Source: a virus. From it: a DNA stretch of 64,000 nucleotides. Within the stretch, counting starts at the first letter, position 1; every line of letters begins with the position of its first letter. The notes beneath the pieces were generated by a model. That model was given only the letters and a program-made list of their open reading frames with translations, ran no database searches and had not been told where the DNA came from. Where the stretch lies: the IMG/VR virus record IMGVR_UViG_3300007162_000005; one strand, written 5' to 3'. The position numbers were made by a program, and so were the translations under genes. Shown one piece after another: positions 5,680 through 62,292 of this stretch.

Positions 5680-5762
5680 AATCTACTAAATTACTACTAA
5701 CTACTATATATCTACTAAATATCTACTAGTAGACTTTAGGTAGTCTTTGAGTAGACTTTACT
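5680..5762. repeat. Low-complexity CTACTA / AGTAGACTTTA repeat tract with a central TCTACTAGTAGA palindrome
   Basis: About 5 CTACTA copies, then 2 AGTAGACTTTA copies, intergenic. Confidence 0.6.
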
Positions 5763-10211: not shown

Positions 10212-10241
10212 ATTATATCACAGTATGTTTTAATATGTCAA
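10212..10241 (-). promoter_or_regulatory. sigma70-type promoter
   Basis: TTGACA-18-TATAAT. Confidence 0.75.
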
Positions 10242-10555: not shown

Positions 10556-10584
10556 ATTATAGCACATCTATTTTACAATGTCAA
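10556..10584 (-). promoter_or_regulatory. sigma70-type promoter
   Basis: TTGACA-17-TATAAT. Confidence 0.8.
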
Positions 10585-15039: not shown

Positions 15040-15068
15040 ATTATACAACAACTAATTATAATTGTCAA
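15040..15068 (-). promoter_or_regulatory. sigma70-type promoter
   Basis: TTGACA-17-TATAAT. Confidence 0.8.
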
Positions 15069-21140: not shown

Positions 21141-23020
21141 TTTATTTTACTAAATCCCCTTTCGTCTTTTATGACGGTAATTATATCATCATAAGGAATC
21201 TTGAGCGATTCATTATGTGAGATTATAAATATGCTTTCTACATCGTTTAACTTCTTAGATATTAGATTCAATACATTGGTTGTCCCCTTTATGTCTAAGT
21301 TATCAAAGATTTCATCTAGAACGATAATGTTGCTAGTGAAGGATAGGTATTGACTCATCATGTCTCTCACGGCAAACTGAATAATAAGGTCTACTCTTTG
21401 CTTTTCTCCTCCCGATAAGTTCTCAAACGACTTGCCACAATAACTTATATCAATGTTATTGCCATCAAGTTTGAAGTCTAGCTCAGATGTTCCAAACACT
21501 TCTTGAGAGTACTCTTTTGCTTTCCTGTCAATAAAGGATATAACACTTGATAATAAGAATCCTCTAAAGTCCCTTTTAACTAAGGTAGACATCTTAGTAA
21601 TTACATCTATGTGCTTTTGCAACTCTTCTTTGTTCTTGGTGTCAGAATCAATCTTATTCTTAAGGGACTCCATTGTTGTTTGAGCCTCTTTAATCTTATC
21701 TTCTAACTTTTGTTTGTTATCAAAGAAGTTCTTCTTTTCATTCTGTAAGGATGTGATTTCATTACTTAGTTTTATCTTTTTATCTGCAAGGATGTTAATG
21801 CTGTCAACTGGCCCATACTGTAAGTTAGTAATCTCAGATTTAACCTTTGTCAACTCTTCTCTGGTTCTTGCGGTATCTAATTCATACTGCTTGTTATATT
21901 CTGCTGTCTCTTTTTCCACTGTAGAGTTATAAGCACTAATTTGAGCAATAAGGCCATCTCTCTTAGCATGATAGTCTAAATACAGTTTATCCTTCTCTGA
22001 GGTATCTGGTTTAAGTGCACCAGGTATCTTTTGACCACAGGTTGGACAAGTATCCTTAATTGCCTTTAATTTAGTGATTTCCCCCTCTAAAGTCTTAATT
22101 AAGACGTTAAGGGTAGTTAATTCTTCTTTTAAGGGCTCAAGATGCTTCTGAGCCTCTTTTGACTTGTTTGCAAGGTACTCTGACTTCTTAAGTGTTTCTT
22201 GGGATATGCTTTCAGTTAGATAACTCAAGCGTTGGTTGAAGGAATCAAGTCTTCCTTGATAGTTTTGATGTCTAATCGATATTTGGTCTAATTCCAGTTG
22301 TTTTTTAGTAATTATTGAGTCATAATCAATAACAACCTTAGTTTTAGATAGTTCTTCGGTTAGTTTAACATACTGTTGAGTATAAACAGATAGTTGAGAG
22401 GTTAATCCTAGTAAAGTATCCTCAAGAGTTCTCTTGGTAGTAGAAAGGTGGTTAGTCCTACGTTCTATCCTGTCTTTGATGTCCTGAATCATGAAGTCTG
22501 ACTTAGACAGCTTCTCTAATACCTCTTTTCGTCCACTAGGGCTGTGATTTGAAAATTTATGAGGTAAACCCTGTCCGAGGATGATTACGCTTCCTATAAG
22601 CTCTGTATTGAGGTCTGGAAGGTATTGTAGGAGGAGTTGTTGAGATTCCTTAATCCCTTTACCACTCATGTCCTTACCATTGATGACAATCTTAAGGTCT
22701 GTGCCTACATCTGAATATTCCTTAAATCGTGTAATTTCATAGTTATTCCCATCAACATTGAAGAAAAGCTTAACAAAACATCCATCCTGGCCATTTATGT
22801 TTACAATGTTAGACTTTAGCCCTTGAATGGTTTCTCCTGTTAAAGCATAGGAAATCGCAGACCAAATACTAGATTTACCTGACCCATTAGAGATGGCAGA
22901 GTCTTTAGGGTTGTTATTAACACCCTTGACCACAGAGTAACCACGGTCAGACAAGGTAAGTTCTGCATCCCCAAAAGAAAGGAAGTTATGTAAAACAACC
23001 TTTTCAAACTTAATCTTCAT
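21137..23020 (-). CDS. sbcC: SbcC/Rad50/gp46-like ATPase
   Basis: Walker A NGSGKS, CPTC zinc hook, LSGGE signature, VLDE. Confidence 0.93.
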   Translation of the reverse strand: MKIKFEKVVLHNFLSFGDAELTLSDRGYSVVKGVNNNPKDSAISNGSGKSSIWSAISYALTGETIQGLKSNIVNINGQDGCFVKLFFNVDGNNYEITRFKEYSDVGTDLKIVINGKDMSGKGIKESQQLLLQYLPDLNTELIGSVIILGQGLPHKFSNHSPSGRKEVLEKLSKSDFMIQDIKDRIERRTNHLSTTKRTLEDTLLGLTSQLSVYTQQYVKLTEELSKTKVVIDYDSIITKKQLELDQISIRHQNYQGRLDSFNQRLSYLTESISQETLKKSEYLANKSKEAQKHLEPLKEELTTLNVLIKTLEGEITKLKAIKDTCPTCGQKIPGALKPDTSEKDKLYLDYHAKRDGLIAQISAYNSTVEKETAEYNKQYELDTARTREELTKVKSEITNLQYGPVDSINILADKKIKLSNEITSLQNEKKNFFDNKQKLEDKIKEAQTTMESLKNKIDSDTKNKEELQKHIDVITKMSTLVKRDFRGFLLSSVISFIDRKAKEYSQEVFGTSELDFKLDGNNIDISYCGKSFENLSGGEKQRVDLIIQFAVRDMMSQYLSFTSNIIVLDEIFDNLDIKGTTNVLNLISKKLNDVESIFIISHNESLKIPYDDIITVIKDERGFSKIK

Positions 23021-24117: not shown

Positions 24118-24630
24118 TTAAACAATTCCAGCCATCCAGTATGGTTTTTCACGTTTTTTCCATGACCAGATAGTCTTCTTCTCATGGATATAGTATTGTC
24201 TATATGATTCAACAGCATTACCTGGAATCTTATATTGGTCAGGCATGGCAAGGGCAAATGGGGTTAATGTTGTGGTTATAGGCATACCTTGTGGGATATG
24301 GGAAAGGTTTTCTACAAGATTGCTGGTAGAATGAATCTTTCCATAACGGTGAGTGTATTCTTGAAGCAAGAACTTTAACAAAGCAAATGCCCAGGTATAG
24401 TTAGTGCTGTTGGTTCTAACCCAGATAGCAGATGGGTGATTGACGTGAGTCTTTTTATAGACTAACGGAGCAATAGGACTATTATAGTAATGGTGGGCAG
24501 TTGAAAGAAGTTGTGCTGTTTCCACAATCATCTTGACAACATGCTTATCCCCGTGGTATACTGCTGCCACTGCTGGATTTTCGTCTAATACAAATATGTT
24601 CATTGTTTTTACCTCGGTATTATTATACAC
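24118..24630 (-). CDS. Pyrimidine-dimer DNA glycosylase (T4 DenV family); likely start at MNIFVLD
   Basis: MNIFVLD.P...A.YHGDKHVVKMIVETAQLLSTAH...HPSAIWVR. Confidence 0.8.
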   Translation of the reverse strand: MYNNTEVKTMNIFVLDENPAVAAVYHGDKHVVKMIVETAQLLSTAHHYYNSPIAPLVYKKTHVNHPSAIWVRTNSTNYTWAFALLKFLLQEYTHRYGKIHSTSNLVENLSHIPQGMPITTTLTPFALAMPDQYKIPGNAVESYRQYYIHEKKTIWSWKKREKPYWMAGIV

Positions 24631-24939
24631 CTATTGTTTTGGTTTGTCAATACTAAAAAGAATATCTGTGGTATTAGTTTTACTATCGATGTCATTTGAG
24701 TTATTAAACACAACAGGCATATCATTAACCCAGGTTTGTTCTGGAAGTTTTATCTCTTGAGGTTTAACAACATCGTATTGAGCTGGAACATAGACGTGTT
24801 GAGTGTTACCACAGCTGGAACATTTATACTCCATCTCTGAAGGCGGTGTGCCATTTGGAACATAAACAGAATAAACAATTCCTACACTCGTTGGAACAAA
24901 CAATGTTCCTTGGCATTTTCCGCAGATTAACTTACTCAT
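24631..24939 (-). CDS. Zn-ribbon protein
   Basis: CGKC...CSSC. Confidence 0.6.
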   Translation of the reverse strand: MSKLICGKCQGTLFVPTSVGIVYSVYVPNGTPPSEMEYKCSSCGNTQHVYVPAQYDVVKPQEIKLPEQTWVNDMPVVFNNSNDIDSKTNTTDILFSIDKPKQ

Positions 24940-29672: not shown

Positions 29673-30055
29673 TGGTGGACCTGAGGGGAGTCGAACCCCT
29701 GTATTAACACTCTTTACCACAACATCTACATCTTGTTCCACTTTAGGTGGAGACACAATCATAATGGACGATAACTGTGTCTTCTTAGTTTCTGTTTCTC
29801 GCAGAAGGATGAGAAACTACTAAGTCAACTTCTGCCAGTCTAGATATTACGAAGATTGCTGTTACTAGACATCACAGGTCTTCGGAGTCGCTACAGGTTT
29901 GTTAGTAGCTAAGGGCCATTACAGGAGCAAACAAGTTGCTGAAGAAGGCTGAGACTCGGCTAAATAAAGATTTAGCAGTTATTGTTTTTTTGGTTTTAGG
30001 TGACCAACCGATGCAGTTGAGGCTCTGATGTGCTAAGCGAAACCATGACAGGCCC
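29673..30055 (-). ncRNA. ssrA: tmRNA
   Basis: 5' GGGCCTG pairs with 3' CAGGTCC-ACCA (G3.U70); T-arm GGGG-TTCGACT-CCCC; AATAACT-GCT resume context; tag ORF 29902-29976. Confidence 0.92.
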
Positions 30056-44185: not shown

Positions 44186-44214
44186 ATTATACAACTAATA
44201 GCTATTAATGTCAA
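44186..44214 (-). promoter_or_regulatory. sigma70-type promoter of the tRNA cluster
   Basis: TTGACA-17-TATAAT, 11 nt before tRNA-Ile. Confidence 0.85.
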
Positions 44215-46635: not shown

Positions 46636-46664
46636 ATTATATCACATCTTTAATGACTTGTCAA
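46636..46664 (-). promoter_or_regulatory. sigma70-type promoter
   Basis: TTGACA-17-TATAAT. Confidence 0.8.
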
Positions 46665-47117: not shown

Positions 47118-47993
47118 TTATTTATTAAAATTATTTCTGTTAAGGAATTGGATTGCCTCTTTAAGGTTGTTTATTTTATCATCCTTGCTTTTAACTTCAG
47201 GAATCACATTAGCTGGATTCTTTTGTGATTGAACCTTTTTAATGCTATTTTCCACCTTGATAAGCTGAGATGATTTTTTGTTTGAAGAGAAGTATTTAGA
47301 TGCTTCTGGGTATGATGTAAACTTAACGGTTTCAAAATACTTGTCACCAGAAACTGTTTCATAATTATCAACAATTAAATAGTAAGTTGGTTCTCTAGTA
47401 TCTCTTGTTTCTGATTCAGGTAAATCACCGACCCATCTAAAATTAAGTAAAGCATTTAAAATATTTCTAGCTAACATGTAAGTAATAATTAAATTAGAAC
47501 CGTCAGGTGCTTTTTTATAAACAACAATTTCTGACATCCTATTTAAATTTTCTGATTCACCTGTCACAGTAAACTTACCATCAATAATATATTGAGAGTG
47601 TCTTCTTATTTTTACGTAAGCTTCTCTTCGTACATTATCTTTTAACGTGTAAGCAACACCACCTATAAAATTATGTGTTTTATCTGTATGGGGGTACACA
47701 TTCGGTGTGAGAGCTAATTCATCTGCTTTTGCTTCATACTGTTCTCTTGTCATTGGAGGCATTTTAATTCTGTATTCACCATCTTTACTTCTGCCTGGGA
47801 ACTCTGTCCACTTCTCACCTTTTTGTGGCTGTAGAACGTGGTTTTCATAATGTTCTTTAAAGTAGTCAGATGTTATTCCATGTAACCATTCTTCATTCAG
47901 CTTAAAATCTAAATCATATGCATGATTGATTGCATTATCAATTTCACGCATTAACGACTCATCAATAAGTTGTCTAAGTTCTTTTTTTGTCAT
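47118..47993 (-). CDS. Hypothetical protein (291 aa) downstream of a structured leader
   Basis: SD CAGGAG. Confidence 0.75.
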   Translation of the reverse strand: MTKKELRQLIDESLMREIDNAINHAYDLDFKLNEEWLHGITSDYFKEHYENHVLQPQKGEKWTEFPGRSKDGEYRIKMPPMTREQYEAKADELALTPNVYPHTDKTHNFIGGVAYTLKDNVRREAYVKIRRHSQYIIDGKFTVTGESENLNRMSEIVVYKKAPDGSNLIITYMLARNILNALLNFRWVGDLPESETRDTREPTYYLIVDNYETVSGDKYFETVKFTSYPEASKYFSSNKKSSQLIKVENSIKKVQSQKNPANVIPEVKSKDDKINNLKEAIQFLNRNNFNK

Positions 47994-48015
47994 GGCATCT
48001 CCTGTTATAAATAAA

Positions 48016-48270
48016 TTGTGCAGCTCCTGTTTTTGTCCCAGCGGGTTGGTTACCGACGGTTTACCACAGAAACTGCTACTGGCCCGAACGTTGACGATTC
48101 AACTGCCAGCTCTGAAGGTTTCTTCCTTCCAATATCCAGTCCTGATTCTCTGGAAGTCAACACCCCATTACCCTGAGTGTTAGTTGGTCTGAGACCTTTT
48201 TAATCTCACTTTTATCCCGAATCCATCGGGTCCTGGTTATCACAGGAGGTTATCGTCCTCTTAATCGTAC
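48016..48270 (-). ncRNA. Candidate structured RNA / cis-regulatory leader (~255 nt)
   Basis: Starts just after a consensus promoter; helices GAGG/CCUC, CCCGA/UCGGG, UGAGA/UCUCA, AACAC/GUGUU, UCCAG/CUGGA, GAAGG/CCUUC, CUGGC/GCCAG, GCAGUUUCUGU/ACAGGAGCUGC. Confidence 0.65.
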
Positions 48271-48276
48271 CTATAT

Positions 48277-48305
48277 ATTATATCATACTTTTAGACATTT
48301 GTCAA
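48277..48305 (-). promoter_or_regulatory. sigma70-type promoter
   Basis: TTGACA-17-TATAAT. Confidence 0.85.
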
Positions 48306-48350: not shown

Positions 48351-48379
48351 ATTATAACATAAACAAAAGTGAATGTCAA
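48351..48379 (-). promoter_or_regulatory. Second tandem sigma70-type promoter
   Basis: TTGACA-17-TATAAT. Confidence 0.8.
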
Positions 48380-48395
48380 CACTAATGTTCACATA

Positions 48396-48404
48396 TAATT
48401 TAGC
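48396..48404 (-). promoter_or_regulatory. GCTAAATTA motif
   Basis: Exact copy of the recurrent 9-mer. Confidence 0.5.
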
Positions 48405-48426: not shown

Positions 48427-48732
48427 TCAACGTTTATTCCTCTTCAATGTTTTTTGGTATTTTTTATACTCAGCATCTTTGGTAGATATAAACTCTTGAG
48501 GAAGGTCACCTTCACTAACAAGCCAGTCTAATGGTATTTGATAACAATAAATCTTGCCGTTAGAAGTCAGTTTACATTCTTTTAAAACCTTATCGCCATC
48601 AAATGAATACAGATAAGGGTACTTAGGGTCAACCACGAAGTAAAGATAGTTTTTACCTCTTTTAATATTCTTCCTGTCAACCAGAACCATCTTATCCCAA
48701 TACCTTGGCATCCAGATAGGGCTTGCGTTCAT
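48427..48732 (-). CDS. Hypothetical protein
   Basis: 101-aa ORF. Confidence 0.65.
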   Translation of the reverse strand: MNASPIWMPRYWDKMVLVDRKNIKRGKNYLYFVVDPKYPYLYSFDGDKVLKECKLTSNGKIYCYQIPLDWLVSEGDLPQEFISTKDAEYKKYQKTLKRNKR

Positions 48733-62248: not shown

Positions 62249-62283
62249 GTGTTTTTCCTTATATCCTTATATTTCATATCATC

Positions 62284-62292
62284 TAATTTAGC
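62284..62292 (-). promoter_or_regulatory. GCTAAATTA motif, putative late promoter of the baseplate operon
   Basis: Exact 9-mer upstream of the gp25-like gene. Confidence 0.6.

Follow-up and report, generated by a model that had tools for sequence, protein, structure and literature searches.

Phage and bacterial RNAs of more than about 200 nucleotides (nt) that combine many covarying helices with invariant loops are few, and those that have been solved are mostly ribozymes, riboswitches or parts of core machines. The closest described counterparts of the element reported here are orphan RNAs such as the raiA motif, ROOL, GOLLD and OLE, and the candidates collected in a catalogue of structured RNAs from viruses and phages (PMC10690425). 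The element lies in a 64,000-nt stretch of the IMG/VR virus record IMGVR_UViG_3300007162_000005 (the window, from here on) and consists of a conserved core of 245 nt on the minus strand (48262 to 48018), upstream of an open reading frame (ORF) for a 291-amino-acid (aa) protein. Like these orphan RNAs, it has a complex fold of many helices in which the stems covary and loops are invariant, it is an intergenic island of raised GC content within an AT-rich genome (47% GC in the RNA, around 33% in its surroundings), it is associated with a phage and it has no known function. It differs from raiA, ROOL, GOLLD and OLE in having no sequence or structure match to any of them in Rfam 15, and it is smaller than the last three. 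It is restricted to one phage lineage and one gene context. The RNA is probably not part of the PMC10690425 catalogue, given its absence from the pattern scans of IMG/VR described below and the assumption that IMG/VR was the main source of that catalogue.

All the ORFs of at least 90 aa in the window that are not nested in a larger minus-strand ORF are on the minus strand, and the feature is therefore read on that strand. The comparative set consisted of nine orthologous sequences including that of the window, all of them metagenomic (loci are designated here by L numbers), from which a consensus structure was obtained with RNAalifold. This consensus has 61 pairs in 11 helices, and standard pairs are present in 99.3% of the cells, compared with 23-44% when partners were slid by 1-3 columns. 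Changes on both sides were found in 17 pairs, against 7.5±1.6 in shuffled alignments, and the observed covariation score was reached by none of 500 shuffles. As a single sequence, the RNA of the window folds with -83.9 kcal/mol (z=-2.6 with respect to shuffles). Many loops and junctions are invariant while the stems covary, and nucleotide identity to the window is 81-92% in the RNA core, 63-89% in the 291-aa ORF and 72-95% in the upstream 101-aa ORF. Conservation begins at AAGAG (48262), some ten bases past the transcription start deduced from promoter spacing, and ends with CUGCAC (48018), directly after the last helix. By these comparative measures the fold is demonstrably under strong selection, and the element is a genuine structured RNA of about 245 nt with 10-11 helices. 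A first-pass annotation of the window, made from its letters alone, had described about eight helices directly after a consensus promoter; the multi-helix RNA is real in light of the nine orthologues and the 17 compensatory pairs, and the promoter next to it matches the consensus in 12 of 12 positions. Paired positions and invariant junctions together make up a conserved structured domain in a 5' leader, as is expected of riboswitches.

The predicted architecture is that of a six-way-junction-like 5' domain (H1 to H6) followed by three hairpins (H7, H8/H9 and H10), all on the minus strand. The RNA opens with the purine-rich segment AAGAG(G/A) (48262-48257), which occupies invariant columns and is unpaired in the consensus; its likeness to a Shine-Dalgarno (SD) sequence is a lead that could point, for example, to ribosome binding near the 5' end. 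In the RNAalifold consensus the 5' domain (48255-48130) is closed by the long-range helix H1 (CGAUA, 48255-48251, with UAUUG, 48134-48130), the least certain of all because its changes are only one-sided and pair-preserving (three of five pairs), and it holds hairpins H2 to H6. Within this domain is the anti-SD-like element CCUCC (48249-48245), invariant in 9/9 sequences, whose last three bases open H2 (UCCUG/CAGGA, 48247-48231; five pairs, one compensatory, from C-G to U-A). H3 (CCCGA/UCGGG, 48230-48216) has five pairs, one of them compensatory, and an invariant UGGAU loop; H4 (GGUC/GACC, 48196-48186) has four, one of which changes from U-A to C-G in four sequences; H5 (48182-48158) is an 8-bp hairpin with a near-invariant loop, AGGGUAAUN, and compensatory changes in half of its pairs (4/8); and H6 (UCCAG/CUGGA, 48154-48135) shows one such change in five pairs. 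In the 3' part, H7 (GAAGG/CCUUC, 48129-48114; loop AAGAAA) has three compensatory pairs out of five and H8/H9 (GCUGGC/GCCAGU around GUUGA/UCAAC, 48110-48078) three out of 11. The last hairpin, H10 (48076-48020), corresponds to the helix GCAGUUUCUGU/ACAGGAGCUGC that the first-pass annotation had singled out, and it stood up to the covariation analysis: it is formed in 9/9 sequences, with 11 pairs of which three are compensatory. Its internal loop (GGUAAA / GAYAAAA) is invariant, whereas in L006, L011 and L008 the tip has lost 12-13 nt by comparison with the other sequences, as is usual for a variable stem extension.

An AU-rich linker of variable sequence and length among orthologues (48019-48006 in the window) separates the RNA from the ribosome binding site of the 291-aa ORF; 22-41 nt lie between H10 and the AUG, and this interval contains no conserved pairing. 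A sequence scan between the RNA and the SD of this ORF revealed no terminator and no good promoter; given this and the tandem promoters upstream, the RNA is presumably the 5' part of the operon transcript. A stand-alone noncoding RNA (ncRNA), which the first-pass annotation had mentioned as the other option, is still a live alternative: the element has its own promoter, in fact two tandem and conserved 12/12 promoters directly upstream, and it shows no defined 3' end, with no intrinsic terminator after H10 and the linker running into the SD. H10 was itself considered as an intrinsic terminator and discarded, its U-rich tail starting too far from the stem and being absent in the L006, L011 and L008 clade. 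A small ORF within the RNA was also rejected, as the GUG-initiated frame of the window meets an immediate stop (GUG UAA) in most orthologues, and so were pseudoknots proposed from covariation, since the compatible column pairs were dominated by phylogenetic noise among nine related sequences.

Searches for known families were done with the 4227 models of Rfam 15, which include riboswitches, T-box, RNase P, SRP, 6S, tmRNA, ribozymes, HEARO, EAR, ROOL, GOLLD, raiA and phage pRNA. No match was obtained in the RNA region at the gathering score, and at E<=10 three divergent versions, those of the window, L012 and L006, gave only snoRNA and lncRNA noise plus SAM_alpha with 11.6 bits (E=3.6), in agreement with the earlier remark that no aptamer could be recognized. 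The Rfam scans and ARAGORN rule out membership in a known RNA family. As for housekeeping RNAs (tmRNA, RNase P, SRP), in addition to the lack of an Rfam match, no helix links the 5' and 3' ends in the consensus, and the tmRNA of the phage is a separate gene (29673-30055 in the Rfam scan). The T-box leaders of Bacillota are similar to the RNA in size (200-300 nt) and in their position behind a sigma-A promoter, and the phage carries tRNA genes. In contrast to them, however, the RNA has no RF00230 match at E<=10, its 5' region is a multi-hairpin junction instead of a single long Stem I, and there is no terminator or sequestrator alternative, all of which argues against its being a T-box. The sequence GUGGUAAACCG in H10 loosely resembles the T-box GGUGGUACCGCG, a lead only.

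The distribution of the RNA was explored with a covariance model, R1, built from the orthologue alignment. In the window, R1 gave 312.8 bits at the cognate site and nothing credible elsewhere, a 14-bit match at 21381-21612, inside a 627-aa ORF, being discarded as a second copy and attributed to chance. Nothing was found by R1 in Bacillus phage Flasso, which has the best relative of the helicase of the window, and blastn against 50,697 GenBank phage records returned no similar DNA. Five patterns built from invariant blocks had no true match in IMG/VR: two gave zero matches, a looser two-block pattern gave 54 that were all chance according to nhmmer, and the two others led to four loci, none credible to R1, the best of which (L312) lies inside an ORF resembling helix-turn-helix proteins. 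When the looser pattern was used on metagenome and genome collections, the matches listed were likewise all chance by nhmmer, and a protein-anchored scan of IMG/VR yielded no further family members. As far as these collections reach, the element is a new structured-RNA family with no curated relative in Rfam 15, distributed in a small lineage of AT-rich uncultured phages (about ten metagenomic contigs) in one gene context.

A specific function had been proposed for H10 in the first-pass annotation, namely that its 5' strand GCAGUUUCUGU (48076-48066) alternates between ACAGGAGCUGC (48030-48020) and a 10/11-identical copy of the latter, ACAGGAGAUGC (48005-47995), which contains the SD (AGGAG, 48003-47999, with five bases between it and the ATG at 47993), so that the SD is freed or sequestered. 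All these coordinates are correct on the minus strand. Conservation of the duplication, on which the proposal had been made to depend, does not hold: the copy is present in the window, a 7-mer of it in L001, and it is absent from the other lineages, where the SD regions (ACAUGAGGAG, GUAAGAGGAA, UUAGGAGAAG, UUCAGGAGAU, UAAGGAGAUG, AGUGGGAGAA) are unrelated outside the SD core. The pairing was evaluated as the best duplex with the SD region (-24 to +3) relative to 1000 shuffled versions in which the SD core was left untouched, with p values combined by Fisher's method over seven lineages. The 5' strand of H10 pairs better than shuffles in the window (0.037) and L001 (0.026), which speaks for the proposal in these two cases; the remaining lineages gave values of 0.22-0.70, with a combined p of 0.22. 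In partition-function folds of the full leaders H10 is always formed, with its compensatory changes in all nine orthologues, and the alternative SD helix never appears, neither in the minimum free energy (MFE) structures nor in the ensembles. A conserved pair of mutually exclusive helices including the SD, as in riboswitches with a translational expression platform, was not found. Furthermore, the SD region of the window and L001 is complementary to the invariant segment CCUCCUGU that contains CCUCC, and it therefore resembles the 3' strand of H10. From the orthologue comparison, the duplicated SD segment is a lineage-specific coincidence and the switch is already largely refuted; we give it hardly any credence.

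If translation is coupled to the fold, the invariant CCUCC is a better candidate than the duplicated segment. In the MFE structure of the window the SD pairs with CCUCCUGU (48249-48242), at the cost of H1 and H2, and the CCUCC segment also pairs with the SD region in the MFE structures of L001 and L003. The fraction of shuffles giving a duplex at least as good with this segment was 0.057 in the window, 0.010 in L001, 0.002 in L009 and in L003, 0.015 in L012, 0.095 in L011, 0.37 in L004, 0.57 in L008 and 0.76 in L006; beyond the SD core, the duplex beats shuffles in three of the seven lineages, with a combined p of 0.0015. According to constrained folding, sequestering the SD costs nothing or at most 1.6 kcal/mol relative to the MFE in the window, L001, L009, L003 and L012, and 3.8-6.6 kcal/mol in L011, L004, L008 and L006. 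When the 48 SD-bearing starts of the window were compared for pairing with the CCUCC segment, the cognate SD region ranked third. The pairing signal is thus genuine though patchy: some lineages may use it to damp translation, but the family as a whole does not conserve it. The RNA shares with SD-sequestering riboswitches and leaders its position after a promoter, the conserved domain and the ability of CCUCC to pair with the SD in some members. It differs from those riboswitches in having neither a known aptamer nor a conserved pair of mutually exclusive SD helices, in that the part nearest to the SD is a highly conserved hairpin instead of a variable platform, and in that the pairing spans around 240 nt. 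The C-rich, partly unpaired and invariant SD-complementary motif is also reminiscent of the small RNAs of Bacillota with C-rich seeds, of the RsaE/RoxS type, from which the RNA differs in being 2-3 times larger and in having no terminator of its own and no Rfam match.

The two promoters that precede the RNA, P1 (48379-48351) and P2 (48305-48277), are both TTGACA-17-TATAAT with an extended TGn and 12/12 matches to the consensus, and they are kept in the orthologues, P2 in all of them; from the spacing, transcription would start near 48270. Eight perfect promoters (TTGACA-N16-18-TATAAT) were found in the window, all on the minus strand, versus 0.07 expected by chance, at 10212-10241, 10556-10584, 15040-15068, 24622-24650, 44186-44214, 46636-46664, 48277-48305 and 48351-48379. 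TG precedes the -10 hexamer in most of them, and one drives the tRNA cluster. In the 138-kb contig L008 a third tandem promoter (TTGACA-17-TATACT with TGn, around 2700-2745) is inserted between P2 and the RNA. A small hairpin (AGUGAU-A8UAAA-AUCACU, 48345-48310 on the minus strand) is located between P1 and P2 and kept in the closer orthologues. Directly upstream of P1 lies the motif GCTAAATTATATG (48404-48392, minus strand), nearly invariant in all orthologues and present also in the distant relative L309; it could be a UP element, an operator or a phage-specific promoter. In the form GCTAAATTA(T/A/G)ATG it is found on the minus strand at 48392-48404 and in two other intergenic spots of the window, 1624-1636 and 62280-62292, and at 267-278 in L309; the 6 occurrences counted in the window do not exceed chance, with 3.9 expected.

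The whole arrangement occupies a 434-nt gap between the 101-aa ORF (end at 48427) and the ATG of the 291-aa ORF (47993), in the order GCTAAATTATATG, P1, P2, the GC-rich 245 nt, the 14-nt AU-rich linker and the SD AGGAG, at the head of a long array of genes on the same strand. In the contigs L001-L013 the genes follow each other in the same way: the helicase, then ORFs of 175, ~100 and 101 aa, the gap of ~400 nt, and the ORFs of 291 and ~132 aa. This is the replication and nucleotide metabolism region of an AT-rich phage (window GC of about 33%) that encodes a tmRNA, four tRNAs, ribonucleotide reductase genes, an SNF2 helicase, DnaB, a DnaC-like protein and a primase. Helicases of Bacillus, Clostridium and Streptococcus phages share ~40% identity with that of the window, and the expression signals of the lineage look like those of Bacillota hosts. 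A second noncoding stretch of the window (5380-5052, minus strand; ~330 nt, relatively rich in GC with 41-43%), downstream of a 59-aa ORF, folds with -96.8 kcal/mol (z=-3.2), has no Rfam match and may be another unclassified structured RNA; short TAGTAGAT-like repeats are present just upstream of it, at ~5700-5740.

The product of the 291-aa ORF (47993-47118, minus strand), which is presumably co-transcribed with the RNA, offers no clue to what the RNA does. Ten close homologues with 52-89% identity, all metagenomic, were found among 5.8 billion proteins, and a profile search gave eight matches among 1.84 billion representatives, none with an informative domain. The protein has no Pfam or PHROG family and no useful neighbor in the ESM Atlas, and its AlphaFold2 model (pLDDT 62; residues 80-260 form a beta-rich core) received no fold assignment by Foldseek against the PDB or in a VIA-wide comparison (best Z 5.4). 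Neither does it contain the domains that accompany guide or scaffold RNAs, i.e. RuvC/HNH as in the IscB/TnpB omega-RNA systems or a reverse transcriptase as in the msr-msd of retrons. The RNA and this type of ORF are adjacent at every locus of the close family; two loci inform on how tightly they are linked. In L010 (1-231) the RNA is 99% identical to that of L004, and the ORF product is 69% identical to that of L004 and 84% to that of the window; this combination of an L004-type RNA with a window-type ORF implies that recombination joined the two within the linker that separates RNA and SD. In L309, a remote homologue of the ORF product (P0013, profile E=1e-19) was identified, and the region 1-640 contains an NrdD-like C-terminus, the GCTAAATTATAT motif, tandem promoters and a 49-aa ORF in the place of the RNA, followed by the 225-aa homologue; R1 found no RNA at the position of the 49-aa ORF. 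The recombinant and the RNA-less locus suggest that the RNA is a separable module. The conservation of H10, which is nearest to the SD yet among the most conserved parts of the RNA, is also unlike that of a typical expression platform, the spacing between H10 and the AUG is variable, and the SD is predicted to be mostly free in 6/9 orthologues.

Our preferred reading, held tentatively and at somewhat less than an even chance, is that of an autonomous RNA module that binds a conserved partner. The RNA would be made behind the two tandem promoters as the 5' part of the transcript of the operon and would act, as a self-contained module, by binding this partner, for example the ribosome or RNA polymerase of the host, some protein, or a ligand, with the invariant single-stranded CCUCC and AAGAG and the loops UGGAU, AGGGUAAU and AAGAAA as contact elements. 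Foremost among these candidates are CCUCC, which is in part single-stranded, and the AAGAG at the 5' end, and the job of the RNA is probably not the gating of the downstream start codon. Several observations count against this reading: no terminator was detected after the RNA, which makes a discrete RNA species putative; the RNA lies 22-41 nt upstream of the same ORF at every RNA-bearing locus, as a cis-regulatory leader would; and CCUCC pairs with the SD region beyond the core in three lineages, pointing to some cis coupling. The gene context discriminates little, because there is only one syntenic arrangement in about ten contigs. The main rival is cis control of translation through CCUCC(Y)GU, whereby the SD would be free when this element is locked in H2/H1 or bound by a ligand or protein, and otherwise sequestered by pairing across ~240 nt. 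Also to be set against an autonomous module, and in favor of this rival, are the duplexes that beat SD-core-preserving shuffles over the seven lineages and the closeness of sequestered and free states, 0-1.6 kcal/mol from the MFE in 5/9 orthologues. The rival gains further from the invariance and partial accessibility of the element, from its MFE pairing with the SD in three sequences, from the co-change of the Y position with its partner on the SD side (U-A in the window, C-G in L003 and L012) and from the direct continuity of RNA and ORF, with neither terminator nor promoter in between. However, L004, L006, L011 and L008 pair only through a trivial 4-bp SD core, with the penalty in the sequestered state mentioned above; any SD is by definition complementary to CCUCC, and two other genes of the window do better than the cognate one; H2 would fold co-transcriptionally some 240 nt before the SD is made; conservation extends over all 245 nt, the three 3' hairpins among them, far beyond what an aptamer and a platform need; and L309 has a homologous ORF without the RNA. 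On balance we regard control through CCUCC as possible but rather unlikely.

A cis-acting leader with a role other than at the SD is a less likely explanation still; it could be a processive antitermination element of the put/EAR kind that modifies RNA polymerase, a 5' stabilizer or ribosome-loading element, or a leader that cleaves itself in the manner of glmS. Like HK022 put and Bacillus EAR, the RNA directly follows strong early promoters where a long phage operon begins, and the degree to which its sequence is conserved would suit contact with a conserved host machine. The absence of a conventional expression platform and the SD-like AAGAGG within ~15 nt of the presumed 5' end also speak for a role of this kind. 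Known put and EAR elements are much smaller, of ~70-120 nt, and known stabilizers are much simpler, both of which count against the idea; the Rfam scans matched neither EAR nor glmS nor any other ribozyme, no downstream terminators that would need bypassing were detected, and transcription is in any case restarted by the perfect promoters at 46664 and 44214. Least likely, after the switch in H10, is a ribonucleoprotein (RNP) in which the RNA serves the 291-aa protein as subunit or guide, or an autoregulatory binding site for that protein, a very improbable option in our view. It is favored by the adjacency of both at every close-family locus, and nothing excludes RNA binding by the protein, because it belongs to no known family. 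Against it, identity between the proteins goes down to 52% next to an RNA that hardly changes, L010 mixes the RNA of one type with the protein of another, the distant homologue in L309 has no RNA next to it, and the protein has no nuclease, reverse transcriptase or known RNA-binding domain.

There are also more far-reaching possibilities. The RNA might represent a new functional class, such as a ribozyme or an RNA that binds and reprograms the ribosome, the RNA polymerase or tRNAs, which the phage would have taken up as an RNA gene like its tmRNA and tRNAs, or else a new riboswitch class with its anti-SD ~240 nt away from the SD; we consider this a minority prospect. The narrow distribution, with about ten metagenomic contigs from uncultured phages, sets limits to these sequence-based proposals. 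What the analysis provides is an RNA that is well supported by only nine sequences and yet stands outside every curated family, and with it an object that can be tested: 245 nt of RNA, the motif CCUCC as a candidate for contacts, and natural variants that either have or lack complementarity to the SD.
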